A stretch of DNA of 64,000 nucleotides from Candidatus Bathyarchaeota archaeon (GTDB taxonomy: Archaea; Thermoproteota; Bathyarchaeia; Bathyarchaeales; DTEX01). The DNA is taken from NCBI GenBank assembly GCA_018397065.1, contig JAGTRI010000004.1, forward strand, positions 8,595 through 72,594, read 5' to 3'. Shown one piece after another: positions 3,863 through 34,739 of this stretch. A program made the position numbers and the translations under genes. The notes under the pieces are model-generated. The model did no database searches. It was not told where the DNA came from and saw nothing but the letters and a program-made list of their open reading frames with translations. Each line of letters opens with the position of its first letter. The stretch's first letter is position 1.

Positions 3863-4900
3863 ATGATTGAAATTGATGGAAGCCAAAAAAGCGGCAGCGG
3901 AACAATACTTAGACTTTCCGTAGCTCTAGCTGCGATCACAAAAGAACCGCTGCATATTTTTAACATTCGCAAGAAAAGAAGAGATCCTGGACTTAGGCCT
4001 CAGCACCTAGAAGCTGTTCTGACAGCCACAAGGCTCTGTAATGCAACAATAAAAGGCGCCTCACTAGGTTCAGAAGAACTCTGGTTTGAACCTGATAAAA
4101 TTGTGGGTGGAAAAATAAAAGCTGAGATTGGAACTGCAGGAAGCATCCCAATGTTAATTTTAACAGTTTTACCTATGTGCATCTTTGCGCAGCAGCCCGT
4201 AAACCTTACGATTACAAAAGGAGGAACCGATGTCCTTCATTCTCCAACAATAAATTACATACGTTTCGTCTTACTTCCAACGTTGGAACAGATGGGCGTA
4301 AAATCAACACTTAAGGTCAACAAATATGGCTACTATCCAAAAGGCATGGGAGAAGTCACGTTAGAAGTTCAGCCTTGCACACAAATACTTCCATACAAGC
4401 GAACGGAATTTGGAAAAATCACAGAAGTAAAAGGCATCTCAGTCTGCACTTTCTTGGCTGACAGAAACGTGGCTGCGCGCCAAGCAAAAGAGGCGGAAAG
4501 ATTATTAGCACAACACGGTTATCACCCAAAAATTGAAGTAGTCAACGATTTTTCAAACCCGTTGCAGAAAGGAAGCTCTTTGGTCCTTTGGTCCTTAACG
4601 GACACTAACGTAATGTTAGGCGGCGATTCAATCGGCGAGATACAGAAACCAAGTGAAAAGGTCGCCTATGAAGCTGTAAAAAGCTTGCTGACTGAAATCC
4701 AAGCAAAAGCAACGGTTGATGTGCACTTAGCTGACATGCTTATACCATTCATAGCCTTAGCAGAGGGCGAATCAGAATATCTTACACGGATGCTAACTGA
4801 CCACATTGAATCAAACCTATGGCTCGCATCTACATTTCTCGGAGCCAAATTCAAAACCGAAAAACATAATGGATTATACAGAATAACAAAAACACAATAA
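3863..4900 (+). CDS. rtcA: RNA 3'-terminal phosphate cyclase
   Basis: MIEIDGS..SGSGTILR, PGLRPQHL, GTAGSI, GGTDV, GYYPKGMG and VDVHLADML (catalytic His). Confidence 0.95.
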   Translation: MIEIDGSQKSGSGTILRLSVALAAITKEPLHIFNIRKKRRDPGLRPQHLEAVLTATRLCNATIKGASLGSEELWFEPDKIVGGKIKAEIGTAGSIPMLILTVLPMCIFAQQPVNLTITKGGTDVLHSPTINYIRFVLLPTLEQMGVKSTLKVNKYGYYPKGMGEVTLEVQPCTQILPYKRTEFGKITEVKGISVCTFLADRNVAARQAKEAERLLAQHGYHPKIEVVNDFSNPLQKGSSLVLWSLTDTNVMLGGDSIGEIQKPSEKVAYEAVKSLLTEIQAKATVDVHLADMLIPFIALAEGESEYLTRMLTDHIESNLWLASTFLGAKFKTEKHNGLYRITKTQ

Positions 4901-4998
4901 AAAATACGCACCTCCAAAAAAGGCCTTCTCAACCAAAACGAAGCAAAATTGGATTAACCTGCACATAAACATTTTTAGCACCACCATTGAATCCATAG

Positions 4999-5140
4999 TT
5001 CCACAGTGTTTCTACAGAGCCTATATAAAGAAAAAATTCTGCGCATCCATGGAACAAACACAAAACAAGGCAAAAAAGATGACCGGACTATATATACTCT
5101 TCCCCCTAAACAACAAGCACATACAAAACAAGAAAAACAT
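4999..5140 (+). repeat. Dispersed non-coding repeat, copy A (inverted partner at ~37155-37299)
   Basis: TTCCACAGTGTTTCTACAGAGCCTATATAAAGAAAAAATTC...GACCGGACTATATATACTCTTCCCCCTAAACAACA aligns by eye to the reverse complement of 37155-37299. Confidence 0.85.
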
Positions 5141-5294
5141 GTCAATAGGCCAGAAAAAACTGCACACACTAGTTTACACGGACTGGAAAAGCATAAACAG
5201 CCCAAATGAAGCAAACAATATTACTCAAACTATAACCTTAGGGTAGCACGAAAGACAGAGTTTATAAAAAAATAAAGCCACACAAGATGAATAA

Positions 5295-5771
5295 TTGATA
5301 ATAATAGACAAGGTGATGAATATTACTAAAAGCCATCCTTACATAAAGTATCCTGGAAATGTCCATTTCGAATGTAGCCTATGCGCCTTATGTTGCGGAG
5401 ACACTGAAACCAACGTTCGAAAAATTCTTTTACTTAAAAAAGAAGCTGAAGAAATTTCTAAAAAGACCCAGAGAGACATTGAAAGTTTCGCTGAAAAAAC
5501 TGATGATAAAGCGCCATATGTCTACGTGATGAAAAAAACTAAGAATAGTAAATGCGTGTTTTTAAAAGAAAAATTATGCACTATTTATGACATAAGACCT
5601 TTGATTTGCAAGTTTTACCCATTCAAGATCGACAACCTTGGAAATCAACATTATAGGTTTTCTTACACAAAAGAATGCCCAGGCATGGGAAAAGGTTCTC
5701 AACTTAAGAAAACATTTTTTAAAATCCTATTCTCCGAATTTATCACTTCAATGAAAAAGAACAATTCATAG
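5295..5771 (+). CDS. YkgJ-family cysteine-cluster (Fe-S/Zn) protein
   Basis: FECSLCALCC, CVFL...CTIYDIRPLICKFYPF and CPGMG. Confidence 0.85.
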   Translation: MIIIDKVMNITKSHPYIKYPGNVHFECSLCALCCGDTETNVRKILLLKKEAEEISKKTQRDIESFAEKTDDKAPYVYVMKKTKNSKCVFLKEKLCTIYDIRPLICKFYPFKIDNLGNQHYRFSYTKECPGMGKGSQLKKTFFKILFSEFITSMKKNNS

Positions 5772-5841: not shown

Positions 5842-6789
5842 TTACAAATCCATGACAAAGAGGAGGCAGTCCACTAGCTCCTTGTATCTGTTTCTGATAG
5901 TTACCTCAGTTACCTTCGCAATTTCAGCTATCTCCCGTTGAGTTCTTCGTTCTCCAACTAAAACCGAAGCAATGTAACTTGCCGCCGCTGCAATACCCGT
6001 GGGTCCCCTGCCAGATGTTAGCTTAAGGTTACCAGCGGTCATAAGAATCTTGTTAGCAATCTCCTCAACCTTGCCCTGCATTGTCAACTGATTTGAAAAC
6101 TTCGACACATACTGGTTTGCCCTAACTGGAGGAATAAGATAATCAAGTTCCTTAACCAAAAAGCGATAGCTCCTGCCAACCTCTCTTTTACTGACATTGG
6201 AAGCCTTAGAAATTTCCTCAAGAGTTCTCGCAAGCCCGCATTGTCTGCATGCAATGTATACAGAAGCTGCGCTAATTCCCTGAATTGACCGTCCGCGAAT
6301 AAGCCTTTCCTTTACAGCCTTCCTATATATGACTGAAGCTGTCTCAAAAATGCTTTTAGGCAACGAAAGATTGTTCGCTATCTTCGTGATCTCAGAAAGA
6401 GCAAACGCAAGATTCCGCTCCATAGCATCGGAAACCCTGATCCTCCTCTGCCACTTCCTTAGCCGGTAAATTTGAGCCTTCTGACCTGCAGAAAACTTTT
6501 TTCCGTAAATATCCCGGTCGTGCCAGTCAATCATCGTAGAAAGTCCCTTATCATGAATCGTAAAAGTTACTGGAGCGCCAGTTCGAGCTCTTTTTTCTCT
6601 TTGCTCAGTGTCAAAAGCCCGCCATTCAGGCCCTTGATCCGTCAATTTCATGTCAAGGACGAATCCACAGTCCATGCACACAACTTCTGCAGACTCATAA
6701 TCTCTCATAAGCCTAGTTCCGCCGCATTCAGTGCATCGCTGAATGTCTCTAAGACCAGGTGAAACAGATGCTTTTTTATTTTCACTCAT
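5842..6789 (-). CDS. tfb: Transcription initiation factor IIB
   Basis: Zn ribbon CTECG...CMDCG, GPEWRAF, two cyclin repeats, [23 protein letters not shown]. Confidence 0.98.
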
Positions 6790-7043
6790 CTTTTTCCACT
6801 CCTTTTTTTCTGTTTTGAAAGAGGCATAAAGTAAAGAAAACTTCCCACAATACTTTGATGGTCACCCGTTTTAACATCAACTAAGACATAAGGCGATACA
6901 GTTGGTCCAATAACGTCAAATATTTTCCCCACTTGCCTATTTTTTTTGTCCATCACTGTTACGCCGATTCTAGGAGTTTTTTCAGCTTTTATTACCGCTT
7001 TACCACTCGGACTGATATGAACGACTCGTCCGATTCTTTTCAA
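6786..7043 (-). CDS. gar1: H/ACA RNP protein Gar1
   Basis: [16 protein letters not shown] motif; conserved gar1-tfb adjacency. Confidence 0.9.
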
Positions 7044-7113
7044 ACCTTCAACTCCTCAAAAGACGTGAACGAAAAAACCCATATTTGTTATATAAACATT
7101 TCTCATTTCGAAT

Positions 7114-7398
7114 TCAGACCATAAGTCTCGAAATTTCATGAGCTACTTCAATGATAATCCTGTTCTTAGCCTTCGTTTTCTTTACAAGAACTAAACCGCT
7201 CTTTTTCCATGAAAAACGAGGATACGCTGCGTCCATTACTACTTTATATGAAAATCCAAGATTTGCAACTGCTTTTTCAAGCACACCCAAGTTTGGGGAT
7301 GGCTTTGAGAGCTTTTTAGGCACCTTCCTTCCCTTAGACCTTGTTTTTGTAGAATCAAAATAGACAGGCCATAAAACAACCTCATCTCGTCTCCGCAT
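7114..7398 (-). CDS. srp19: Signal recognition particle protein SRP19
   Basis: VLWPVYFDSTKTRSKGRKVPK...YPR motif. Confidence 0.95.
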   Translation of the reverse strand: MRRRDEVVLWPVYFDSTKTRSKGRKVPKKLSKPSPNLGVLEKAVANLGFSYKVVMDAAYPRFSWKKSGLVLVKKTKAKNRIIIEVAHEISRLMV

Positions 7399-7458
7399 AT
7401 TCCAGATTCACCATCATTAATATTCAAAAGACAACTCAAAAGGTGCGAAAAACTAACT

Positions 7459-7845
7459 CTATTGCGAGACTAGAATTCCGTTAAGAACCCCTGATTGCCC
7501 AGGTCTGGACGTTACCCGAACAGTTCCCATAGAAGTTTCAAGAAGCGTTCCTTTTGTGATAACACCCCTTCTGTCATAATCCACGTTAGATGGATTCTTA
7601 AGAACCCTTAATATTTCAACCCTCTTGGTTTCTCCTGTTGAAGAATCAGAGACATTCACATATTTTGTACTCACGAGACGAACTTTTAAGGTTCCTCCTC
7701 TTCCTCTTTCTTTCTTTGTCTCGTGTTCATTAATAGTAGTCATAATGGGAAAGTTTCCTTTCTCAAACCTTCGTTTACCTCTGTATGCTTTCTTTTTACC
7801 GCCTGAACGTTTCCTTTTATGTAGATTGCCATGCCAAGATGACAT
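7459..7845 (-). CDS. rps8e: 30S ribosomal protein S8e
   Basis: RKRSGG, RGRGG, RRGVITKGT and VTSRPGQSGVLNG. Confidence 0.97.
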   Translation of the reverse strand: MSSWHGNLHKRKRSGGKKKAYRGKRRFEKGNFPIMTTINEHETKKERGRGGTLKVRLVSTKYVNVSDSSTGETKRVEILRVLKNPSNVDYDRRGVITKGTLLETSMGTVRVTSRPGQSGVLNGILVSQ

Positions 7846-20769: not shown

Positions 20770-20816
20770 TGCAGTTAACAGAGATTCTCAGATAAGTCAA
20801 GTTCGCATTTTCATCT

Positions 20817-24066: not shown

Positions 24067-25068
24067 TTGCCATCCTATGTTGCGGTGGCCAAGCTGCAAT
24101 TATATGGAATTTTCTCATCCGTAATAGGCAGTTTCCCCTTGGATGACTCTGAATCGAACAGAGAAAAGTGCATAGAAGATCAGTTAAAATTAGGGTTGGA
24201 TTTCCCATCTTATCCTCAATTGACTGAGATGGGTCCACAGTTTTTAGGTGAAATCGTGAAATATGGTAGCGGAATTCAGTTAGAAAAAACTCGGTACAAA
24301 ATGAGCAGTAAAAAAATTGAGTATGAAGGTCCTCCTATAGGCTTAGAACCCTTTTTTTGGACAAAAAAATATCTTCAAAACAAGGGTTTGGCAGAGACGG
24401 TTCATTTAAAAGTTCCTATTACAGGGCCTTTTACCCTTGCCTCTTATATTGAAATTAAAACAGGAGTTTTCCCTTTTAACTCTGCAGCTGCCGATTTGGA
24501 TATTGTAAGGCAGGTTGCTGATATATTGGCAAAAAGCTGTGAAGAAGCTTCAAAGAATGCCAACATGATTTCAATCGATGAACCCATCTTAAGTGTGCTG
24601 GTAGGAACAAGAACTACCTTTGGTTACAAAGAAGAAGACATAATAAATGTACTTAATGCTTTTAAAGAGTCCTGTAAAGGCAGAATTGTGGGAACACACA
24701 TTTGTGGCAGAATTTCTCCTAAACTGGTAGACATTCTTCTTGATACTGAATTTGATTATCTTAGTCACGAATTTTGCGATATACCTCAGAATATGAAAGT
24801 GTATTCTCCAGAAAAAGTGAAGAAAAAAGAAAAAACACTATCCGTTGGCTGCGTGTCAACTAAAAATCCAAGAATCGAAAGCGTAGATGAAATTTTGGGA
24901 GTAATGAAACAGTTCAGAGAATATAGTGATTCGGTGATTTTCACTCCGGACTGTGGTTTTCGTAAGCTCTTAGTAGGTAACTTAACTAAAGATGAAGCTT
25001 ATGAGATTTCTTTACGTAAAATCAGAAACATGGTTGAGGCTTTAGGGAAATTTAGGGCATCTTTCTGA
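24067..25068 (+). CDS. Cobalamin-independent methionine synthase catalytic-domain (MetE-C/URO-D superfamily) protein
   Basis: IGSFP, ITGPFTLA, IDEP, and Zn ligands HICG, HE and TPDCGF. Confidence 0.8.
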   Translation: MPSYVAVAKLQLYGIFSSVIGSFPLDDSESNREKCIEDQLKLGLDFPSYPQLTEMGPQFLGEIVKYGSGIQLEKTRYKMSSKKIEYEGPPIGLEPFFWTKKYLQNKGLAETVHLKVPITGPFTLASYIEIKTGVFPFNSAAADLDIVRQVADILAKSCEEASKNANMISIDEPILSVLVGTRTTFGYKEEDIINVLNAFKESCKGRIVGTHICGRISPKLVDILLDTEFDYLSHEFCDIPQNMKVYSPEKVKKKEKTLSVGCVSTKNPRIESVDEILGVMKQFREYSDSVIFTPDCGFRKLLVGNLTKDEAYEISLRKIRNMVEALGKFRASF

Positions 25069-26296
25069 CAGAGTTATTAGTTGTCTTCTCCAACAGACCA
25101 GATTCCCTAAGGATTCGGCGGAATTCCTCATCTCTTAGAGAGGCTTTTCTTCCACCAGAGTAGATTGCTTTAATCTTTTGTAAAACGTCAAGAACTGCTT
25201 CGTTACTAGGCGTTTTTCCAGTTATTTCTTCAATCATATACTTGACTATGGCTTTACCAGACTGTTTGCCGATAGTCAAGCGCCGTTTGTTTCCAACAAG
25301 CTCCGGAGGATACGGCTCATACGTTAAGGCGTTACTGAGAACCCCATGGGTGTGAATGCCAGATTCATGAGCAAAAGCGTAATCTCCGACAATAGCTTTG
25401 TTTGGAGGGACAACATAACCAGTGGCTTTCCCGATGAGATCAGCAGTTTCCTTAAGTTTACTAATTTTATATCCAAACTTTTTTATGCCATGATGCATCA
25501 GAAGGTTCATTATGACTTTTTCAGTTTCTGCGTTTCCAGCTCTTTCGCCGATGCCTAGAAAAGTGGTGCTGGCATAGATTTTTGGCCAGACTCCAGACGC
25601 TGCTCTGATAGCGGCTAGTGTGTTTTCAACAGCGTTACCGAAATCGTCGTGAGCATGAATCTCGACGTTTTCTATCTTGGTTTCAGCTTTTATGGCTTTT
25701 ATCTTCGCTGGAATTCCGATTGGTAGAGGAGCGTCTAAGGAGGATAGTCCAATGCCTACTGTATCACATATTCTATAGCATTTCGCTCCTGCATCTGCCA
25801 CCGCGTTGATAAACCTTTTTTCGAAGTTCCAGTCTGCTCTTGTGCTATCCTCACCATGGACGAAAACCCTCAGTCCGTGATCTTTCGCTGCGTACTCGAC
25901 GACTTCAACAACTCGATCGATGAGTTCTTCAGGTGTCTTTTCCGGCCATTTAGCCTTAAAGTGTATAAAAGAGACAGGATGTGAAATTCCTATGTCATCG
26001 AATCCGCAGTCAAGAGCGTTATCTACGTCTTCCTTTACTGCCCTGCACCACCCGGCTATACTGGCTTTTAGACCCATTTTATGTATGAGTTTCGCTGCTT
26101 GTTTGTCGGGTTTTTGGAAATGGTGCAATTCGATTCTTTCAACTCCAATTTCGTCTAATAGCTTCGCAATTTTGGCAGCGTCAGTTGGAGTAACTGCTAA
26201 GCCTGGCATTTGAACTCCGTCTCTTAATGTTGTGTCATCAATTATTGGATCCGTGTGTAACGGTAAAAAGCTGAATCCAAACTTTTCAAAGTTCAC
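25052..26296 (-). CDS. DRE-TIM acetyl-CoA condensing enzyme (IPMS/homocitrate synthase family; Re-citrate synthase-like)
   Basis: DDTTLRDGVQ, HAHDD, GIGERAGNA, AFAHESGIH; no C-terminal IPMS regulatory domain. Confidence 0.85.
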   Translation of the reverse strand: MNFEKFGFSFLPLHTDPIIDDTTLRDGVQMPGLAVTPTDAAKIAKLLDEIGVERIELHHFQKPDKQAAKLIHKMGLKASIAGWCRAVKEDVDNALDCGFDDIGISHPVSFIHFKAKWPEKTPEELIDRVVEVVEYAAKDHGLRVFVHGEDSTRADWNFEKRFINAVADAGAKCYRICDTVGIGLSSLDAPLPIGIPAKIKAIKAETKIENVEIHAHDDFGNAVENTLAAIRAASGVWPKIYASTTFLGIGERAGNAETEKVIMNLLMHHGIKKFGYKISKLKETADLIGKATGYVVPPNKAIVGDYAFAHESGIHTHGVLSNALTYEPYPPELVGNKRRLTIGKQSGKAIVKYMIEEITGKTPSNEAVLDVLQKIKAIYSGGRKASLRDEEFRRILRESGLLEKTTNNSVRKMP

Positions 26297-26345
26297 GCTG
26301 TAAACACCGGCCGTTTCTGTAAAACTTTTTTTTAAAAAAATGGGA

Positions 26346-26624
26346 TCACTGTGAGTTTAGAGATGCTGGATGAAAGATTGAAATTAAAGTTTCAGTGTGT
26401 ACGACGTTTGGATGTTGCTCCACCATTTCGTAGATTATCTTGCCAAGCTCCTCTAAACTTTCTGCTTCAACCACCACGACTGCATCGAACCTGCCTAGGA
26501 CAGAATTAGCCATTTTTACACCTTTAATCCTTCTTGATTTCACGATTTCTTCTGAAGTCCCAGGCTTTACCGTAACCATTACGAACGCTCTTAAGGCTTT
26601 GCTGCGCAAATCTTTGGAAGGCAT
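26346..26624 (-). CDS. Stand-alone Lrp/AsnC ligand-binding (RAM) domain protein
   Basis: RAFVMVTVKPG...VLGRFDAVVVVEA...VVHTETLI; no HTH. ATG 26624 follows AGGTGA. Confidence 0.85.
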   Translation of the reverse strand: MPSKDLRSKALRAFVMVTVKPGTSEEIVKSRRIKGVKMANSVLGRFDAVVVVEAESLEELGKIIYEMVEQHPNVVHTETLISIFHPASLNSQ

Positions 26625-26677
26625 TTTTTTCACCTAATCTTTGTTGTTTGTTTATTAACAGTTTTTCATAATGGATT

Positions 26678-26905
26678 CTACAGTACCAAAGAGGTTTCGG
26701 TGTGTACAATGTTAGGGTCTTTTTCGATCACTTTGTAGAGGATTTCGTTTACGCTTTCAAGGTTTGGCGCCTCAATGATTACTACTGCATCGTATCTTCC
26801 ATATATCGCGTCTGCTTGAACAACCTCTTTCACTTTGCTTTTTATTCTCTTAACAACCTCCAAGGATGTTGCAGGTTTCGTTTCAATAAACACATATGCT
26901 CTCAT
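26678..26905 (-). CDS. Stand-alone Lrp/AsnC ligand-binding (RAM) domain protein
   Basis: RAYVFIETKP...IYGRYDAVVIIEA...IVHTETSLV. ATG 26905 follows GGTGGTGA. Confidence 0.85.
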   Translation of the reverse strand: MRAYVFIETKPATSLEVVKRIKSKVKEVVQADAIYGRYDAVVIIEAPNLESVNEILYKVIEKDPNIVHTETSLVL

Positions 26906-26924
26906 TTTTTCACCACCTTCATTT

Positions 26925-28409
26925 TTAATAATCAATATATTTCATTATTTCCCAGGGCGTTACATAGAGACAGTATTGGTTCCAATCGTTTGTCTTATAT
27001 TCTATGAAAGCATCAAAGATATGACTTCCAAGTGTTTGATGGATCACTTCATCACTTTTCATCTCATCCAAAGCGTCTTTCAACGTTGTTGGTAGTTCTT
27101 TTATCCCAAGTGCTTTTCGTCTTTCAGGAGATAGCTTATAGACATCCTCGTCAACAGGATCTCCAGGATCAATTTTTTTCTTAATGCCATCAAGCCCAGC
27201 TTTTAGAAGACAAGAGAAAGCCAGATATGGGTTACACGATGGATCTACACCTCGATATTCAACTCTTTTCTGAGAGGCATGTTCTGTTCCCTTGTAATAG
27301 AGAGGTATACGTGCCAGTGCGGATCTATTGCGCCGAGACCACATGATGTATATTGGAGCTTCAAACCCCGGAACAAGCCGTTTATAAGAGCTTATCGTTG
27401 GACAACACACTGCAGTTAAAGCCTTAGCGTGCTCTAATAAGCCGCCTACAAAATATCTTCCTGTTTGGCTGAGCTCTGCATATTCATCGTTCTCGTCGTA
27501 CATCACATTCGTTTTGCCCTTCCATATAGAGGCGTGAACATGCATTCCACTGGCGTTATCTAGATAAACTGGTTTAGGCATAAATGTCGCTATTAACCCA
27601 TATTTTTTGGCTACATTCTTGGCTACAAACTTGTAATATAGAGCTTTATCCGCTGTGTCGAGTAGTGGTCCAAAACGAAAATCAATCTCAATCTGACCGG
27701 CTGTAGCTACCTCGTGATGATGTTTTTCAATCTTAAAGCCAAAGTAATCCTCAAGTATTGATGAAACTTCATTGCGGTACTCAATAGTTGTGTCCTCTGG
27801 AGGAGGTCTATAATATGCTTCTTTTGGTCTAAGAGTATAGCTTCCAGCAGAGATTTCGGGTGACTGTGGAACAACCCTTGGGGCTCCCCAAGAGTCGCCT
27901 TCTCCTCCTTTAGGGCTGACCCATAGATCCCAAACCAATTTAGTTGGGTCAATTGAAGAAAAAATGAAATATTCTAGCTCAGGAGCGAAATAACCTTTGT
28001 ATCCCATTTCTTCTGCGGATTTTATGGCTCTTTTTGCAACATAGCCCCTTGGGTCTACTTCAGATGGTTCGTTTCCTCCATAAGCTTCGTAAACATCACC
28101 TAGAACAATAGCACTTTTCTGATTTTTTTCTTGGGTCCATGGTATTATAGCGAGTGTTCCTGGATCTGGCATGAAGATCATATCTGATTCTTCGATAGAT
28201 TTGAAGCCTCTGATTGAAGAGCCATCGAAGCCTATTCCTGAGATGAAGGCTGATCCTTCAATATAATCTCTTGCTGGTATAATCATGTCTTGCATTAGTC
28301 CACGAATGTCTATGAAGGTTGAATGAACCCATCTCACTTCATTTGTTCTTAAGGTTTCAATAGCTTTCTTTGTTTTTTCACCACTTTCCATACCGTTCAC
28401 CAATTTCAT
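26925..28409 (-). CDS. glnA: Glutamine synthetase type I
   Basis: FDGSSIRGF, ESDM, PELEYF, HHEVATAGQ, FMPKP, NASGMHVH, KRLVPGFEAP, RNRSA, NPYLAF. Confidence 0.97.
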   Translation of the reverse strand: MKLVNGMESGEKTKKAIETLRTNEVRWVHSTFIDIRGLMQDMIIPARDYIEGSAFISGIGFDGSSIRGFKSIEESDMIFMPDPGTLAIIPWTQEKNQKSAIVLGDVYEAYGGNEPSEVDPRGYVAKRAIKSAEEMGYKGYFAPELEYFIFSSIDPTKLVWDLWVSPKGGEGDSWGAPRVVPQSPEISAGSYTLRPKEAYYRPPPEDTTIEYRNEVSSILEDYFGFKIEKHHHEVATAGQIEIDFRFGPLLDTADKALYYKFVAKNVAKKYGLIATFMPKPVYLDNASGMHVHASIWKGKTNVMYDENDEYAELSQTGRYFVGGLLEHAKALTAVCCPTISSYKRLVPGFEAPIYIMWSRRNRSALARIPLYYKGTEHASQKRVEYRGVDPSCNPYLAFSCLLKAGLDGIKKKIDPGDPVDEDVYKLSPERRKALGIKELPTTLKDALDEMKSDEVIHQTLGSHIFDAFIEYKTNDWNQYCLYVTPWEIMKYIDY

Positions 28410-28541
28410 TTAACAGGATTGATTTTCATTACATATTTATATATAAGTATTTCGTTTTATTCTAGAAAAAGTTTAAATAATTGCTTCAATATTGAACAAA
28501 TATTCAGCAGTCAATTAACATTCAATTTGGGGAAGAAAGTT
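28410..28541. promoter_or_regulatory. Divergent promoter region glnA / lrp with candidate operators
   Basis: TATA-like TTTATATATAA and TTTAAATA; perfect palindrome TTCAATATTGAA (28485-28496); TGAA-N6-TTCA (28493-28506); ATTGATTTTCAT (28418-28429). Confidence 0.55.
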
Positions 28542-29009
28542 ATGGAACAGAAATCGTTGGGGAAGTTAGATCGTATAGATCTTCAAATCCTTACATTACT
28601 TCAAGAGGATTCAAGATTAAGTTTTGGCAAAATAGCAAGTATACTTGGGGTTTCTGCTGGAACAGCTTATAACCGTATCAAAAATCTTGAAGACAAAGGA
28701 ATACTGAGAGGTTATACTGTATTAGTTGATCCTTCTATGCTTGGGTATGCAACAATCGCCCTTATATTGGTCCAAGCTGAAGGAACACACATTTTAGATG
28801 TAGAGAACGAGATTGCAAAAATCGATAATGTTGTTTCTGTATACGATATTACTGGGGATTTCGATATTGCTGTGATTGCCCGTTTCAAATATAGAGAAGA
28901 TTTAAACACCTTTGTGAAGAAACTGTTAACTTCGCCTTATGTAAAGAGAACCGTCACAAACATTGTTTTGAACGTCATTAAGGAAGACTTTAGACTAAAG
29001 ATCTCTTAA
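28542..29009 (+). CDS. Lrp/AsnC family transcriptional regulator
   Basis: LDRIDLQILTLLQEDSRLSFGKIASILGVS HTH and VYDITGDFD ligand domain. Likely start is ATG 28542. Confidence 0.95.
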   Translation: MEQKSLGKLDRIDLQILTLLQEDSRLSFGKIASILGVSAGTAYNRIKNLEDKGILRGYTVLVDPSMLGYATIALILVQAEGTHILDVENEIAKIDNVVSVYDITGDFDIAVIARFKYREDLNTFVKKLLTSPYVKRTVTNIVLNVIKEDFRLKIS

Positions 29010-29046
29010 CTAAGGCTGTCACGGGTCTCAAAATAGAGGTTCGACT

Positions 29047-29586
29047 ATGAAAAATCCGGTAAGGATAACAATAGCACTTGACAGCGAAACATATGAATTA
29101 CTCCAGAAGATGAAAAAAGAGATGAGGGTCTCTAAAAGCGAATTGATGAGAAATGCTTTACGGTTTTACTGCGAAAACAAGGATATGATAGACGCTTATA
29201 TGAAAAGTAAAGTAGAGTTTTACATTGATATGCTTTGCTCTGGAGAACACATGATCTTAGATGTCGATCATTGGCTTCTTTTCCTTAATTTATTAGAATC
29301 TCCATCTGAAAAGAATACTTTTTGGGATAAACATAGAGAAATAGCAAGAGCCCATGCAGATCAGCTGAAAGGCAAAGTTCGTTCAATTGAAGATCTTTTA
29401 GAAAGACTTGAGGCTTGTAACTTCTTCAGGAAAATCAAGAACTCGGAAAATGAATTCACTTTGGTTTTAGGATCGGAGACAGCAAAGGAATTTGTCAAGA
29501 TATTTCTTGAAGAATTCCTCGCATCTGCTGGTTTAAATGCGAGCATTAAAGAAAATTTGGCTAAACTTAGAGTTACATTCAATTGA
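29047..29586 (+). CDS. Ribbon-helix-helix (CopG-like) regulator with a C-terminal putative sensor domain
   Basis: RITIALDSETYELL...SKSELMRNALR RHH pattern followed by an ~125-aa domain. Confidence 0.75.
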   Translation: MKNPVRITIALDSETYELLQKMKKEMRVSKSELMRNALRFYCENKDMIDAYMKSKVEFYIDMLCSGEHMILDVDHWLLFLNLLESPSEKNTFWDKHREIARAHADQLKGKVRSIEDLLERLEACNFFRKIKNSENEFTLVLGSETAKEFVKIFLEEFLASAGLNASIKENLAKLRVTFN

Positions 29587-29713
29587 GTTCCTTCAAAAAT
29601 CATTCATTCTATTGTTATATTTTATATTTATTCATTCATATTTTTTCACAAAAAATATGAAAAAATCTCAAAAATGTTTATATTATTGAATTTTCATACA
29701 CCTGCCAAAAAAG

Positions 29714-30484
29714 GTGATAATAACGGAGCAAATAAATGTTGCAATCAAATCGCAAAGCAAAAAAGTCGAGTGGATTGACATTGGTGTCGAAGGTCTCTTA
29801 GACTTTATTCCAGGTCTACCTAAAGGTGATGCTATCCTTGTAAGGGGGGAACCTGGTACCGGAAAAACAATTCTATGTCTTCAATTCTTACACAAAGGAG
29901 CTGAAAATGGTGAGAAGTGTATATACATAACTACTGAGGAAACTCCTGAAACTCTTATGAGAACAGGTACTGAACTTTGGATTGATTTTCCAGATTTGGT
30001 TCAGAAAAAACAGGTGGTTATAGTGGATCTTTCTATAGCAGCAACTTACGATAGTGAGTTTTCAGTTATCAGCAAAGAAGAAGCAGTAGATATATTCATG
30101 AAAGGCTTAGCTGCGCAACCCGAAGCAACTAGAATAGTCGTAGATTCTCTTTCATCGCTAGAGCGAAGACTCGCAGATCCGGCGGACTTTAGAGAAGTCT
30201 TCATGAGACTCCTGCTGGAAGTAAAAAAGAGAAAGGCAACAACAATATTCTCGGCAGAAGGTATTCCTGTGAATCCAGACATCACAGAATACCTTGTCGA
30301 TCACTTGATATACCTAGACTATCACAAACACGACGTCATCTGGACGAGAGTCTTCATACTTAGAAAATCTAGAAGTGTGCCATTAAAACCGCAGATACTC
30401 AAATTAAACATTGAAAAAGAAGGGTTATCAGTAGAGGAAATACCCATCTCACTAAAGCCAGTATGGTTTGCAAGCAAACTCTAG
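29714..30484 (+). CDS. Single-domain KaiC-like (RecA superfamily) ATPase
   Basis: Walker A GEPGTGKT, TTEET, Walker B RIVVDSLS, LVDHLIYL and ILRKSR. Confidence 0.9.
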   Translation: MIITEQINVAIKSQSKKVEWIDIGVEGLLDFIPGLPKGDAILVRGEPGTGKTILCLQFLHKGAENGEKCIYITTEETPETLMRTGTELWIDFPDLVQKKQVVIVDLSIAATYDSEFSVISKEEAVDIFMKGLAAQPEATRIVVDSLSSLERRLADPADFREVFMRLLLEVKKRKATTIFSAEGIPVNPDITEYLVDHLIYLDYHKHDVIWTRVFILRKSRSVPLKPQILKLNIEKEGLSVEEIPISLKPVWFASKL

Positions 30485-30489
30485 GGTGA

Positions 30490-31818
30490 TTGAGAATGTC
30501 AACTTCACAAGATGAGACTTTTGCAGCAATACAGCAAGTTTTTGTAGTCGGATGGGCGCCGGTAGCAATATTAATAATGGCAACAGCAGGTTTTGCTCTT
30601 CTCTACGCCGGACTTGTACGAAAAAAGAATGTTGCTCACACCATAATCATGCTTAACATCGGCTGGACAATGGCTTTCCTACTATACTACCTGATAGGTT
30701 TTCCAATTGCATACTACACTAAAGAGCCAGTATTTGGTTTGCCTCAATTTATACCGACTATAGCCAATCCGTTGCCTGCAGCTCTATCCAGCACTGGAGC
30801 ATATGGTATTAGTGCGAGCCCTTCTGGATATGGAGATTTAGGATTATGGTTCAAAATGGCGATGTTTGCAATTACCACTATCGCTATAGTGCCTGGTGCA
30901 ACGGCTGAACGGGATAAACTTTGGGGATGGGTAATAGCTGCCGGAGCCATAGTGGCATTCCTATATCCAGTTGTTGAACATTGGGTATGGGGCGGAGGTT
31001 GGTTGGCACAGATAGGTTTCATTGACTATGCAGGATCTTCAGTCGTACACCTAGTTGGGGGCATGTTTGCGTTGATGGCTGCAATTGTAATTGGTCCAAG
31101 AACAGGTAAATTTGTCGGGAAGAGGAAAGAAGCCAGAGCCTTCTTTGGTCACAGCCTACCATTGTCAGTTATTGGCGCTTGGCTACTAGTATTCGGTTGG
31201 TTCGGCTTCAATGTAGGCTCGAGCATAGCTAACAGGGCTCAAACAATCAATGTTGAATTAGCATGGGTCGGTGTTACCACAGCAATGGCAATGGCAGGAG
31301 GACTATTTGGAGCAGCCGTAACCTCAAGAGGACATGCTTTAACATCAACAGCAGGCTTGCTTGCAGGTGCAGTTTCTATTTGCGCTGGAGCAGCAATCAT
31401 GAATCCTATATTCGCATTCATAACAGGCTTAATTGGTGGCATCATTACAACATTTGTTCAAGGTCTTATGGAGCTGAAATTTCACATTGACGATGCTTGC
31501 GTTTGTGTTCCAGTACATGCAGCATGTGGTCTATGGGGCACGGTCGCTGCCGGACTATTTGGTGTTAATATATTTGGCGCTCATCCAATATATGGAGTTT
31601 CCACAGTCGAGGCTTGGCTTCGCATGATAGGAATACAGATCGTAGGCGCATTAGCAATAATTGCATGGACTGGATTGACGGGCTTCATACTTTTCAAGAT
31701 GATAAACAAAATGGGATTACTACGTGCACAAAAAGACGCAGAACTGTTTGGCTTAGATATAGCGGATCACAAAACCTACGCTTATCCTGAAGATGAATTA
31801 GATAAAGAATTTCCATAG
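30490..31818 (+). CDS. amt: Ammonium transporter
   Basis: AGLVRKKN, GATAER, HWVWGGGWL, DYAGSSVVH, WFGFN, DDA...VH (twin His) and GLD C-terminal motif. Confidence 0.97.
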   Translation: MRMSTSQDETFAAIQQVFVVGWAPVAILIMATAGFALLYAGLVRKKNVAHTIIMLNIGWTMAFLLYYLIGFPIAYYTKEPVFGLPQFIPTIANPLPAALSSTGAYGISASPSGYGDLGLWFKMAMFAITTIAIVPGATAERDKLWGWVIAAGAIVAFLYPVVEHWVWGGGWLAQIGFIDYAGSSVVHLVGGMFALMAAIVIGPRTGKFVGKRKEARAFFGHSLPLSVIGAWLLVFGWFGFNVGSSIANRAQTINVELAWVGVTTAMAMAGGLFGAAVTSRGHALTSTAGLLAGAVSICAGAAIMNPIFAFITGLIGGIITTFVQGLMELKFHIDDACVCVPVHAACGLWGTVAAGLFGVNIFGAHPIYGVSTVEAWLRMIGIQIVGALAIIAWTGLTGFILFKMINKMGLLRAQKDAELFGLDIADHKTYAYPEDELDKEFP

Positions 31819-31827
31819 GTGAAAAAA

Positions 31828-31971
31828 ATGACTCAAACAATAGGAAGAGTATTAGAAGAAAAAAATATGGTTGAGCTATTTGCGGAAATAGAGGATTTGA
31901 AAAACCGAGTAAAACATCTTGAAGCCGCTGTGAACTCACTCAAACTGAAAATGGGTAGAAAATGGGTATAG
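31828..31971 (+). CDS. Unannotated 47-aa coiled-coil protein downstream of amt
   Basis: AGGTGA RBS overlapping the amt stop, then ATG. Translation MTQTIGRVLEEKNMVELFAEIEDLKNRVKHLEAAVNSLKLKMGRKWV shows a heptad pattern. Confidence 0.65.
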   Translation: MTQTIGRVLEEKNMVELFAEIEDLKNRVKHLEAAVNSLKLKMGRKWV

Positions 31972-32437
31972 TCGCAGCAACAGTGATGAAGTTCAATTTC
32001 AAGAAGAACGGCGATGTGATTGGATCTAAAAACTCGGCTATGTCAAAGCCTATGAAGAAGATGGTACGCCAGCTTGAGACTACACGAAGTTAAGCAAGAG
32101 ATAATCAAAGCGGACGGTTGGAGCTGTAAATGAAAAGGCAATCAGGGGTCTCTTACCAAAGACTACCATATTGGTCACGGATGAAAGAAATCGGGAAAAC
32201 CATTAAAGGTCCTTGCGACAACTGAGGAATGGGTGTGTTTGGCGATGGAAAATCTTTGTGCTATATATTCATTAGATAGCATATTAACACAGGACAGAGG
32301 AACGGTGGATAGACACTACACAACCTTCTTTTTCTACTTTACTTGATGTTTTGAAAAAAATATAAAAGGCTCAAGCAAGTGATTGACAAAATAATAAGTA
32401 TCAGAAGCTTTTTCGTAGAAATATCGAGGAGAAAAAA

Positions 32438-34105
32438 TTGAGAATCGCAATGGCTCAAATAAATCCAACTGTCGGAGATCTTGATGGAAACGCTGAGAAA
32501 ATTTCTGATTACATAAAAGAAGCTGAAAGACATAAAGCTGAGTTGGTGGTTTTTCCCGAATTAGCTGTCACTGGCTATCCTCCTCTGGATCTGTTGCGTG
32601 AAAAATCGTTTGTCAAAGACAATATTAAGGTTGTAAAAAATATAGTTAAGATGAATAAGAGCATAATCGGCGTAGTTGGTTTTGTCGATCATAGGAAAGA
32701 CAAACTATTTAATGCTGCAGCTGTTTTTGAGGGAAACAGAATTGTTGGTATAGCGCACAAAGCTCTCCTGCCTACATACGATGTTTTTGACGAGGATAGA
32801 TATTTTGTTCCAGCGAAAGAGGATGAAATTCAACCTTTAAGTGTGAATATAGGTGGAAGGCAAGTTAAATTAGGTGTCGAAATTTGTGAAGATTTGTGGG
32901 ACAAGAAATACGAGGTTAAGGTTACTGATATCCTTGTGAAACGTGGAGCACAAGTTATAATTAATATTTCGGCTTCACCGTTTTATGCTGGGAAAAGGTT
33001 TGAACGCGAGAGACTGCTTAGGGAAAAAGCCCAAAAGCTGCATGTTCCAATTTTTTACGTCAATCTTGTTGGTGGCCAAGACGAGCTTGTTTTCGACGGC
33101 CAAAGCATGGGTGTTGACGCTGAGGGGAACTTCATCGCGTTTGGCAAACAGTTTCAGGAAGACTTTATAGTGGTTGATATTGACAGCACAACTTGGACTG
33201 CGCCCAAGGTCACTGTTCCAACGTATTGCGAAGAGGAAGAAAAATTTAATGCGTTGGTTTTAGGTATTCGAGATTACTACAGGAAAACAGGCTTCGAAAA
33301 AGCTGTTGTCGGAATGAGTGGCGGAATTGACTCTTCATTAACTACATGCATCGCTGTTGAAGCCTTAGGAAAAGAAAACGTCATCGGCGTTTCCATGCCG
33401 TCAAAATATTCAAGCGAGCACAGCAAGACCGATGCAGAGAAATTGGCGAATAACTTAGGGATATGTTTTGTAAAATTTTCGATTAATGAGATCATTGAAA
33501 GCTACAAAAGAACACTTGATGAACCTCTTAAGATGATTAGAAAACATTTTGGCGTTCACGAGTCAGAGGATGACCCGATTGCTGACGAAAATATTCAGCC
33601 TAGAACTAGAGGAAATTGTCTTATGGATATTTCTAATCGATTGAAGGCATTGAAAATTTTGGTTTTAAATACGGGGAATAAGACTGAGCTTGCGTTGGGA
33701 TACTGCACTTTGTATGGGGATATGGCTGGGGGAATAGGAGCTTTGGGCGACGTTAGCAAGCTTGACGTGTACAAGCTAGCTAGGTATGTTAACACTAAAG
33801 CTGGGAGGGAAATCATTCCAGAGAATGTTTTTAGGAAGAAGCCGTCGCCTGAGTTGAAGGAAGGTCAGTTTGATCCGTTTGACTTTGATATTGTTAGTCC
33901 TTTAGTTGACGAAATAATTGAGCGCCACAGAAGTCGAAAAGAATTAGTTAGGATGGGATATCCCAAGGCTGTTGTGGACGATGTTTATAATCGAATAAGG
34001 AGGTCTGAATACAAGAGATGGCAGGCGGTTCCTTGTATAAAGATTACTAAGCAGGCTTTTGGAATCGGTTGGAGGATGCCTATAGTCAATAAATACAAAG
34101 GCTAG
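32438..34105 (+). CDS. nadE: Glutamine-dependent NAD+ synthetase
   Basis: Nitrilase triad (FPEL, K in HKALLP, ICEDLW) plus synthetase motifs SGGIDS, ENIQPR, TGNKTE, GYCTLYGD and PSPEL. Confidence 0.95.
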   Translation: MRIAMAQINPTVGDLDGNAEKISDYIKEAERHKAELVVFPELAVTGYPPLDLLREKSFVKDNIKVVKNIVKMNKSIIGVVGFVDHRKDKLFNAAAVFEGNRIVGIAHKALLPTYDVFDEDRYFVPAKEDEIQPLSVNIGGRQVKLGVEICEDLWDKKYEVKVTDILVKRGAQVIINISASPFYAGKRFERERLLREKAQKLHVPIFYVNLVGGQDELVFDGQSMGVDAEGNFIAFGKQFQEDFIVVDIDSTTWTAPKVTVPTYCEEEEKFNALVLGIRDYYRKTGFEKAVVGMSGGIDSSLTTCIAVEALGKENVIGVSMPSKYSSEHSKTDAEKLANNLGICFVKFSINEIIESYKRTLDEPLKMIRKHFGVHESEDDPIADENIQPRTRGNCLMDISNRLKALKILVLNTGNKTELALGYCTLYGDMAGGIGALGDVSKLDVYKLARYVNTKAGREIIPENVFRKKPSPELKEGQFDPFDFDIVSPLVDEIIERHRSRKELVRMGYPKAVVDDVYNRIRRSEYKRWQAVPCIKITKQAFGIGWRMPIVNKYKG

Positions 34106-34181
34106 AATCGCAGAGATACGGGATGACATTTTGATAATAATCCGTTGTGCGATAAGTTTCTGAAAAACTGCGTTTTTTGAG

Positions 34182-34739
34182 CTATGACATAGTGTCAAAG
34201 GCAATATTTGAGACAACCTTTAGAAGATCTGAACGGGTGATAATGCCAACCAGTTTCCCTTTCTTTGTCACCAAAACGCCCGAGTTCTTTTCCAAGAGAG
34301 GCCTAATTACGGCAATGTCCGTGTCTTCTGGGACGCTTGGGAAGGGCGGCTTCATTATTTTTTCCAATGTCTCCTCTGCAATGTTGGGGTTTAGGTTTCT
34401 GATGATTGATTCTTCAGTAATCATTCCTACGACTTTTCCGTCGTCAATTATGGGCAGTTGCGAGATTGCATGTCTTACCATGATTTCGCTTGCCTCCCTA
34501 ATCTTATCTTTGGGGGTTGCGGTGATCACGTTGCGGGTCATGATTTCTGCGCATTTTCTTCCTTTTCCTCCTTCGAGTATCTCTAGAATCTTGTTTACTG
34601 TTGAAAGTCTTGGATCCACTTTTTCACTTTCTATTTTCGCGATGTGAGCTTGTGACACTCCAACCATCTTTGCAAGCTGGCTTTGTGTTAGACCTGCCTC
34701 AAGTCTTTTTTTCTTTAGGATGGATCCTGTTAATGGCAA
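34182..34739 (-). CDS. XRE-type HTH plus CBS-pair regulator
   Basis: LTQSQLAKMVGVSQAHIAKIE...DPRLST followed by two CBS domains. Confidence 0.93.
   Translation of the reverse strand: MPLTGSILKKKRLEAGLTQSQLAKMVGVSQAHIAKIESEKVDPRLSTVNKILEILEGGKGRKCAEIMTRNVITATPKDKIREASEIMVRHAISQLPIIDDGKVVGMITEESIIRNLNPNIAEETLEKIMKPPFPSVPEDTDIAVIRPLLEKNSGVLVTKKGKLVGIITRSDLLKVVSNIAFDTMS

Follow-up and report, generated by a model that had tools for sequence, protein, structure and literature searches.

The DNA analyzed here, hereafter the window, is a stretch of 64,000 nucleotides from a Candidatus Bathyarchaeota archaeon (contig JAGTRI010000004.1, assembly GCA_018397065.1), in which a gene for a single-domain KaiC-like ATPase lies directly upstream of a gene for an ammonium transporter (Amt). 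This pair, kaiC-amt, is the subject of our analysis, together with the possibility that the ATPase regulates the transporter. In the table of open reading frames (ORFs) five genes follow each other on the plus strand, i.e., those for an Lrp-type regulator, an RHH regulator, the ATPase, the Amt and a small ORF, with glnA divergent from them. Only 5 bp separate kaiC from amt (30485-30489) and 9 bp amt from the small ORF (31819-31827). An earlier reading of the letters alone (the original prediction) had described the same two gaps and the two regulators preceding kaiC-amt, divergent from glnA; both descriptions agree with the ORF table, and the regulators are also recognized by Pfam. The features of the locus, in window coordinates, are:

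26925..28409, minus strand: glnA, glutamine synthetase type I (Pfam Gln-synt_C 2.7e-125, Gln-synt_N 3.3e-24)
28419..29009, plus strand: Lrp/AsnC-family transcription regulator with a winged helix-turn-helix and a RAM ligand domain (AsnC_trans_reg 1.1e-14, HTH_24 6.6e-14)
29047..29586, plus strand: RHH (ribbon-helix-helix) regulator, 179 amino acids (Pfam RHH_1 1.5e-10)
29645..29684, plus strand: putative kaiC-amt promoter region, judged by eye from the sequence and an inverted repeat
29714..30484, plus strand: single-domain KaiC-family (RecA-superfamily) ATPase, 256 amino acids (PF06745 8.7e-44), first part of the module core
30490..31818, plus strand: type-A ammonium transporter, 442 amino acids (PF00909 4.2e-91), second part of the module core
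31828..31971, plus strand: 47-amino-acid coiled-coil microprotein ending in GRKWV, with homologs directly after amt
32438..34105, plus strand: NadE, glutamine-dependent NAD+ synthetase with a CN-hydrolase domain (NAD_synthase 2.4e-65, CN_hydrolase 2.8e-31)

The genes glnA and nadE are context of the module and not part of its core.

The linkage of kaiC and amt was followed in an even sample of 401 genomes of the window's class, with cut-offs of at least 67% identity for a type-A Amt, E <=1e-109 for an ATPase ortholog and E <=1e-30 for an Amt-like match. Type-A Amts occur in 19 of the 401 genomes and ATPase orthologs in the identical 19, and in all of these (19/19) the ATPase gene immediately precedes amt on the same strand of one contig. 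Neither gene was found in the other 382 genomes, and the ATPase ortholog is missing from all 93 that have only other Amt types. The same picture emerges among 41 close genomes (the window's own, G000, and 40 relatives), six of which have PF00909 matches, falling into two kinds: type A, with 439-442 amino acids and ~306-314 bits, in G000, G010, G013 and G040, and a second kind with 409-436 amino acids and 411-447 bits. ATPase orthologs (E <=1e-110) were recovered only from the four type-A genomes, each directly upstream of the type-A amt.

An ATPase-seeded scan of public genomes, one per GTDB species, yielded 72 loci, comprising 44 orthologs (at least 61% identity) and 28 distant homologs (at most 35%). 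A type-A Amt is encoded directly downstream of the ATPase in 39 of the 44 ortholog loci, at a distance of -17 to 156 bp (5-17 bp in archaea). The remaining five (L052, L053, L058, L060 and L061) are uninformative, as their contigs end at kaiC or at most 371 bp after it, so the pair is present in 39/39 informative public loci; no Amt stands next to any of the 28 distant KaiC homologs. Thus, kaiC-amt is a strictly conserved two-gene unit with fixed order on the same strand. The original prediction had called for a survey of amt neighborhoods and had counted a missing linkage in relatives among the outcomes that would speak against it; the pair proved adjacent wherever a locus is informative. Of the conserved kaiC-amt-small ORF order that it envisaged, the kaiC-amt part holds everywhere, and the small ORF is restricted to one sub-clade. 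A generic-motif metagenome scan from the Amt side returned a single type-A locus among 80 (L091), which is cut at the contig start and uninformative. Three loci (L019 at 6287-7604, L057 and L062) have amt and/or kaiC split by apparent frameshifts into at least two tblastn segments, and these are either assembly errors or decaying copies.

The ATPase matches PF06745 with 150 bits (cut-off 26.6) over profile positions 2-228 of 231. Its Walker A motif GEPGTGKT (45-52), glutamate pair E75-E76 and Walker B residue D144, which correspond to the catalytic motifs of KaiC, are invariant in 31 orthologs, and the window's copy is intact in all three, just as had been read from its translation. The best Foldseek match is PH0186 (2zts; E 2.9e-15, template modeling (TM) score 0.61/0.71, 28% identity), with KaiC CI domains also at the top. 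The monomer model has a confident core, and its C-terminal 54 residues (203-256) are poorly modeled, with a predicted local distance difference test (pLDDT) score of ~42. Pfam GvpD_P-loop matches as well (27.9 bits vs a cut-off of 24), and no NCBIfam model reaches its cut-off. We rejected an assignment to the circadian clock KaiC proper, since the protein has one domain of 256 amino acids instead of two in tandem (~500 amino acids) and reaches 58.5 bits with circ_KaiC against a cut-off of 546. The KaiA and KaiB families gave no match at E <0.01 among the ORFs scanned with Pfam in 25052-34739, no dedicated search having been made.

Judged by sequence identity, the ATPase is a sharply separated KaiC subfamily: any two members share at least 63% identity, and beyond them no homolog found exceeds 36% identity to the window's protein. 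The best conserved stretches are the surroundings of the P-loop and the last quarter, residues 193-256 (mean column conservation 0.84-0.95), the latter including a family-specific C-terminal tail with the consensus EEIPISLKPVWF that is missing from a generic ATPase paralog of the same genome (L004). Public collections hold at least 265 clusters of the ATPase (E <=1e-40) and at least 150 of the Amt; the former carry only generic names, such as "KaiC/GvpD/RAD55 family RecA-like ATPase", "ATPase domain-containing protein", "hypothetical protein", "gas vesicle protein GvpD" or "circadian clock protein KaiC".

The transporter gene starts with TTG, with an ATG two codons later, and its relatives encode 437-442 amino acids. 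The corresponding protein collection entry (P0227) has 413 amino acids owing to a later start; relatives support a start near 30490-30496. The protein scores 306.1 bits with PF00909 (cut-off 23.2) and 324.4 bits with the NCBIfam model TIGR00836 "amt", below the cut-off of 343.3, which marks type A as a divergent clade of the Amt family. This agrees with a clean gap in the class sample, where type-A Amts are at least 67% identical, all other Amts at most 38%, and nothing falls between. In a phmmer alignment with E. coli AmtB (1xqe), F126, W167, D179, H187, F238, S244 and H343 correspond to F107, W148, D160, H168, F215, S219 and H318, which we take to be the Phe gate (F107/F215), the Trp/Ser site (W148/S219), the Asp (D160) and the twin His (H168/H318); all seven pore residues are invariant in 31 orthologs. 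Features that distinguish type A from other Bathyarchaeia Amts are a conserved extension at the N-terminus, a lengthened loop following transmembrane helix (TM) 2, a cytoplasmic TM5-6 loop that is ~four to six residues longer, and a conserved acidic extension (PED/E-M-M-E-like) beyond the canonical C-terminal AY. Its best PDB sequence matches are the sensor Amts 6eu6 (7.3e-42) and 8qj3/8qpf (~1e-40), with the transporter Af-Amt1 (2b2f, 6.4e-40) following by a small margin. Membership in the sensor Amts was ruled out on the N1/N2 receptor signature QX6EX15NX2D[F/T]X54-60TX2[S/T], proposed by Pflüger et al. (PMC11152129), which a regular expression found in 0/31 type-A Amts.

The relation of the pair to P-II (GlnK) differs in part from what had been expected. 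As the original prediction stated for the window, PF00543 has no match there, nor in the rest of the assembly (G000; 1.2 Mb, 46 contigs, 71.55% complete); the same search detected P-II in 13 of 14 control genomes. P-II is present in 2/41 close genomes (2/29 of the high-quality ones) and in 24/401 genomes of the class, of which 112/401 have an Amt-like match. Reading the two tables together, 16 of the 112 Amt-bearing genomes also have P-II and 96 do not, and therefore Amt without GlnK is the rule in the class; the missing P-II, first taken for a specialty of this locus, is a class-wide trait. Fifteen of the 19 genomes in the class sample that carry the pair gave no P-II match, among them G040, a single-contig (closed) genome that is 97% complete. 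In the other four (G142, G275, G395 and G103) P-II directly follows the module's amt, and across the public loci it lies within 300 bp downstream of this gene in 9/39. The idea of a KaiC-like ATPase instead of GlnK thus holds only in part, fitting the 15 carriers but not the nine loci: the ATPase is no substitute for GlnK and does not need it either, and GlnK is an optional third gene. What survives of the original prediction here is the possibility of a P-II-independent module.

In L030, P-II adjoins a second, canonical amt. Such canonical amt-glnK pairs were seen within a few kb of the module in L030 (7004-8532), L036 (8773-10397) and L038 (8040-9545), their Amts being 29-31% identical to the window's; therefore both systems can coexist side by side. 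PF00543 also has no match in G414, a 4.7-Mb Anaerolineae-labelled genome of unreported completeness that carries the module. In another Bathyarchaeia genome we noted an Amt-GlnK fusion, i.e., a 579-amino-acid ORF (L171, 977-2716, minus strand; G124:C24) that consists of a complete Amt, a linker of ~60 residues and a C-terminal P-II (GlnK-like) domain; a 575-amino-acid open frame in G316 (G316:C161) suggests a second one.

The 39 loci are labelled as Bathyarchaeia/Thermoproteota, Asgard archaea (Promethearchaeota, Hermodarchaeota, Sigynarchaeum) and Anaerolineae/Chloroflexota, and they include the cultivated enrichment Ca. Bathyarchaeum tardum (L048/G040). Identity of the pair across carriers is 63-85% (lowest pairwise value 63-64%), and over 31 full-length pairs the window's proteins are matched at 66-79% (ATPase) and 65-80% (Amt). 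Neighboring genes are far less conserved. Relative to the window, the Anaerolineae loci show 73-80% identity for the ATPase and 67-71% for the Amt (76% in the truncated L033) vs 38-41% for the adjacent glnA, and the Asgard loci 74-76% and 65-66% vs 35-36% for NadE. Such a contrast implies that the pair is transferred as a cassette or else exceptionally constrained. Compared pair by pair, the identities of ATPase and Amt are correlated (r = 0.90 over 31 gene pairs, which are not independent of each other). Quick maximum-likelihood trees were built for both proteins, with BathyI denoting the window's clade and BathyII a second Bathyarchaeia clade with two tandem ATPase genes. In the Amt tree BathyI, BathyII, Asgard and Anaerolineae each form a single branch (supports 100, 100, 99 and 85), and in the ATPase tree so do BathyII (100), Asgard (100) and Anaerolineae (86), BathyI being unresolved there. 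A type-A Amt was found in only 1/301 genomes of the class of G414, namely in G414 itself, which holds the Anaerolineae-labelled locus L021; the cassette is therefore rare and patchy in this class. In another Anaerolineae-labelled locus, L035 (on a 286-kb contig), the flanks encode a CdaR/AdeR-like regulator, a type I GlnA, an SDR oxidoreductase and a CDF transporter.

The BathyII loci (L039-L051 and L056, Ca. Bathyarchaeum tardum being one of the carriers) have two tandem ATPase paralogs upstream of amt, each 64-71% identical to the window's ATPase, e.g., at 4617-5360 and 5989-6738 in L048. The spacer between them is usually AT-rich and 434-798 bp long (~37 bp in L039 and L050) and contains no conserved ORF; in L042 it measures 1,281 bp and includes an ORF of 248 amino acids that is unrelated. 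These paralogs could form a hetero-oligomeric ring.

The small ORF spans 31819-31971, and its ATG at 31828 gives the 47-residue product; this start methionine is invariant in 6/6 relatives. Homologs directly follow amt in six loci, all BathyI (L019, L020, L023, L024, L025 and L057), and are missing in the BathyI loci L022 and L059 and in all other clades. All six aligned microproteins begin at the same Met, show a heptad-like L/R/L/E pattern and end in GRKW[VL]. Codon comparison of L019 and L057 gave a proportion of synonymous differences (pS) of 0.50 and of nonsynonymous differences (pN) of 0.06. Most other pairs are saturated at synonymous sites (pS 0.6-0.9, pN 0.2-0.45), and L023/L025 are near-identical and uninformative. 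Given pN far below pS and the shared features, the ORF is real, under purifying selection and representative of a narrow gene family. Searching 1.84 billion representative proteins with a profile of the microprotein, we obtained 106 hits (E <=0.001). The eight small ones that were fetched (39-83 amino acids) all end in [GA][RK]KW[VL], and the remaining hits, mostly long and with several matched stretches, were taken for generic coiled coils. With homologs in 6/39 loci plus the window, all in one sub-clade, and in four of them (L020, L023, L024 and L025) situated between amt and glnK, the microprotein does not qualify as the core component it had been proposed to be.

Accessory genes were counted in the 39 module loci by tblastn with the window's proteins. 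The most frequent is glnA (16/39), which in the Anaerolineae loci is directly upstream, followed by RHH (10/39), NadE (9/39) and Lrp (3/39). The Lrp and RHH regulators, which the original prediction had noted ahead of the pair, are thus lineage-specific additions outside the core. RHH orthologs in module loci are 41-67% identical. The window's protein matches RHH_1 (PF01402) with 41.1 bits (cut-off 20.5), its residues 4-48 align with the RHH domains of PutA (2rbf, VIA-align Z 6.6) and NikR (1q5v, Z 6.2), and in its model (pLDDT 76) the C-terminal ~130 amino acids fold into an α/β domain with no Pfam match. The VIA-align scores of this domain are middling (all Z <8): DmpR 6iy8 7.2 (125 aligned), H-NOX 4u99 7.2, Bet3 2cfh 6.9 and PoxR 5fru 6.7. 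The matched parts of DmpR and PoxR, the best non-designed matches, are their phenol-sensing domains. Foldseek gave TM scores of 0.33-0.40, and Atlas neighbors include HNOB/V4R clusters (TM 0.46-0.47). With low to moderate confidence, the modeled fold suggests that the RHH protein may be a ligand-sensing regulator of the locus with a V4R/H-NOX/Bet3-like domain.

Upstream of kaiC lie a palindrome TTCAC-N7-ATGAA (29645-29661), the motif TCTCAA (29666-29671) and a TATA-like box TTTATATT (29677-29684) ~30 bp before the kaiC start. By eye, the layout of palindrome (TTCA[TC]-N7-ATGAA), TCTCAA and TATA recurs upstream of kaiC in L019, L020 and L022; the Asgard loci L037, L038 and L054 share TCTCAA and TATA with it. 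Judged in the same way, the palindrome is a candidate operator. The pattern TTCAT-N5-9-ATGAA is not enriched in the window (one match, at 20816, vs 1.15 expected), and the kaiC copy, with TTCAC, is outside this pattern. Reads covering positions 29000-32100 came only from DNA runs, labelled hot springs metagenome, with no RNA run among those listed. Two stand-alone Lrp/AsnC RAM-domain proteins of 85 and 95 amino acids are encoded directly downstream of glnA (26678-26935 and 26346-26633, both minus strand), and such a pair also follows glnA in L022 and L056. They may be amino-acid-sensing partners of glutamine synthetase (GS) or of the Lrp regulator.

The two genes always occur together, in a fixed order and almost overlapping; they are conserved and transferred jointly, their catalytic and pore residues are intact, and they stand in a nitrogen-assimilation context, usually beside glnA, nadE or glnK. 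We therefore infer a dedicated partnership of the ATPase with this Amt clade. More specifically, we consider it an evenly balanced proposition that the ATPase is a dedicated cytoplasmic nucleotide-dependent regulator of type-A Amts, beside which GlnK is optional. That it would sense ATP/ADP and bind Amt physically is pure inference. Like other KaiC-family proteins the ATPase would form an oligomeric ring, which may bind the cytoplasmic face or the C-terminal region of the Amt trimer, a six-fold ring sharing the three-fold axis of the trimer. The nucleotide or phosphorylation state of the ring would then open or close the channel, tying ammonium uptake to energy status and reducing futile ammonium cycling in energy-poor anaerobes. 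GlnK, where present, would act beside the ATPase, and the window's sub-clade would add the 47-residue coiled-coil peptide, which may be an adaptor comparable to sP36 (see below), and the RHH regulator with its presumed ligand-sensing domain. A bolder version, which we entertain only tentatively and on balance doubt, is that the ring is a nucleotide-driven gate of Amt that senses energy charge, has a fold unrelated to P-II, works without P-II (as in G040) and spread between Archaea and Bacteria as a cassette, with the peptide of the window's sub-clade as an adaptor that connects Amt, the ATPase and any GlnK present.

Several points weigh against a gating role. To our knowledge, no KaiC-family ATPase regulates a channel, and the strict linkage would also fit a role in signaling or assembly. 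None of the 120 type-A Amts listed is fused to the ATPase (all have 413-451 amino acids and PF00909 only), and no longer proteins matching the ATPase at E <=1e-30 were found, which the search tool itself rates as weak evidence. In the nine loci with P-II after amt the known gate is at hand, so a second one is not obviously needed there. Taxon labels are those of the submitters of the metagenome-assembled genomes, and genomes of one lineage are not independent, which leaves ~four clades as effective independent observations. According to the ATPase tree, Asgard sequences group with BathyI (support 92), whereas the Amt tree places them with Anaerolineae (support 89); the deep order is therefore not settled.

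If the ATPase does not control the channel, it might relay a signal from it. Type-A Amts would then be ammonium receptors (transceptors), and the ATPase a separate transducer to transcription (RHH/Lrp) or to glutamine synthetase. Such a role would fit the sensor Amts at the top of the PDB matches, the RHH regulator gene that accompanies the pair in 10/39 loci and the proposal of KaiC-like ATPases as archaeal signaling hubs attributed to Makarova et al. 2017 (cited in PMC5847659). Ks-Amt5, too, retains the conserved Amt motifs yet does not complete NH4+ translocation (PMC11152129). Nevertheless, we regard the receptor role as unlikely, given the receptor signature in 0/31 type-A Amts, the marginal E-value lead of the sensor Amts over Af-Amt1, the 29/39 loci with no regulator gene beside the pair and the lack of any fused transducer among the 120 type-A Amts listed. 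The ATPase might instead act on another nitrogen target, either GS or a regulator, as GvpD does on GvpE, and share an operon with amt since both are needed under nitrogen limitation. The match to GvpD_P-loop, the RHH regulator of the window's clade and the glnA found nearby in 16/39 loci (directly upstream in Anaerolineae) argue for mere co-regulation of this kind. What makes it improbable is that amt is the only invariant neighbor (39/39, vs 16 for glnA, 10 for RHH and 9 for P-II). The 12 aligned BathyII loci all have amt and two copies of the ATPase; of the other genes, tblastn detects glnA and Lrp in L056 alone, and RHH, NadE and P-II nowhere among these loci. Moreover, the ortholog is missing from the 93 class genomes having only other Amt types.

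An ATPase required for inserting type-A Amt, assembling its trimer or removing and degrading it, with no part in gating, would equally be an obligatory partner with strict one-to-one linkage and joint transfer, and RecA-superfamily rings are generally known as frequent remodelers of proteins. We consider such a biogenesis or turnover factor highly improbable, as other Amt clades need none, no conserved protease, insertase or adaptor gene lies beside the pair and such a role is not known for any KaiC-family member. Chance or hitch-hiking adjacency devoid of functional meaning has only the general fact on its side that neighboring genes are not always functionally linked. Set against an adjacency of 19/19 and 39/39 in the same order and strand, across four clades and two domains with changing neighbors, its probability is negligible.

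A close parallel to a regulatory kaiC-amt pair is amtB-glnK, in which GlnK plugs the cytoplasmic exits of the Amt trimer. In both, amt is tightly linked to a gene whose small cytoplasmic product binds nucleotides and forms oligomers, and the setting is nitrogen assimilation. Here, however, the partner is a ~250-amino-acid KaiC-like ATPase of the RecA superfamily that is encoded upstream of amt, with or without glnK. The ATPase shares its single KaiC domain, Walker A, EE pair and Walker B with PH0186/PH0284, ArlH of the archaellum motor and GvpD, and is set apart from other archaeal KaiC-like ATPases by its own conserved C-terminal tail, its invariant Amt neighbor and its separate subfamily. 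Makarova et al. 2017 reportedly proposed KaiC-like ATPases as signal transduction hubs of archaea. The sensor Amts Ks-Amt5 (6eu6) and Sd-Amt1 (8qj3/8qpf) likewise couple an Amt to a cytoplasmic signaling enzyme, but there Amt and transducer (histidine kinase or diguanylate cyclase) form one fusion protein, whereas the module has a separate ATPase gene. Control at the cytoplasmic C-terminal region of Amt independent of P-II, for which the module is a candidate, has a counterpart in fungal Mep2/Npr1, where it is exerted by phosphorylation. In plants, CIPK23 controls the C-terminal region of AMT1 by phosphorylation, and KaiC-family proteins have kinase-like autophosphorylation chemistry; the enzyme families of both systems are unrelated to the KaiC-like ATPase. 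The nearest functional precedent for the microprotein is sP36, a 61-residue protein of Methanosarcina mazei. It binds both AmtB1 and GlnK1, which depend on it to associate after an ammonium upshift (PMC10714827). The likeness, a microprotein linked to Amt/GlnK in archaea that lack GlnD, is a functional analogy only: by description, the present family differs in having 39-52 amino acids (one has 83), a single predicted coiled-coil helix and the C-terminal [GA][RK]KW[VL].

In the literature searched we found no description of a KaiC-like/Amt pair, a mention in Makarova et al. 2017 or its supplement being possible, and in the accessible part of the publication on Ca. Bathyarchaeum tardum only "amt" is named, KaiC nowhere (PMC10477458). 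The pair thus suggests something new, an Amt with a dedicated cytoplasmic regulatory partner of a different fold, in a kind of system known from GlnK. What is known of Amt channel control concerns P-II almost exclusively. With P-II in 24/401 and Amt in 112/401 genomes of the class, the ATPase partner is a concrete, testable candidate for the control of uptake in P-II-less archaea. If it is indeed a partner, the large and mostly uncharacterized family of archaeal KaiC-like ATPases would gain a defined membrane target, and if it gates the channel it would represent a second type of ammonium-channel regulator whose fold is not related to that of P-II. The pair, conserved across two domains beside poorly conserved neighbors, is a clear case of joint transfer of a transporter and its partner, and its carriers include abundant anaerobes of sediments and hot springs (Bathyarchaeia, Asgard archaea and Anaerolineae).

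A further regulator is encoded just downstream of nadE on the opposite strand (34182-34739, minus strand). This protein of 185 amino acids has, according to Pfam, an N-terminal HTH_3 (helix-turn-helix) domain followed by two CBS domains, pairs of which often bind adenosine nucleotides.

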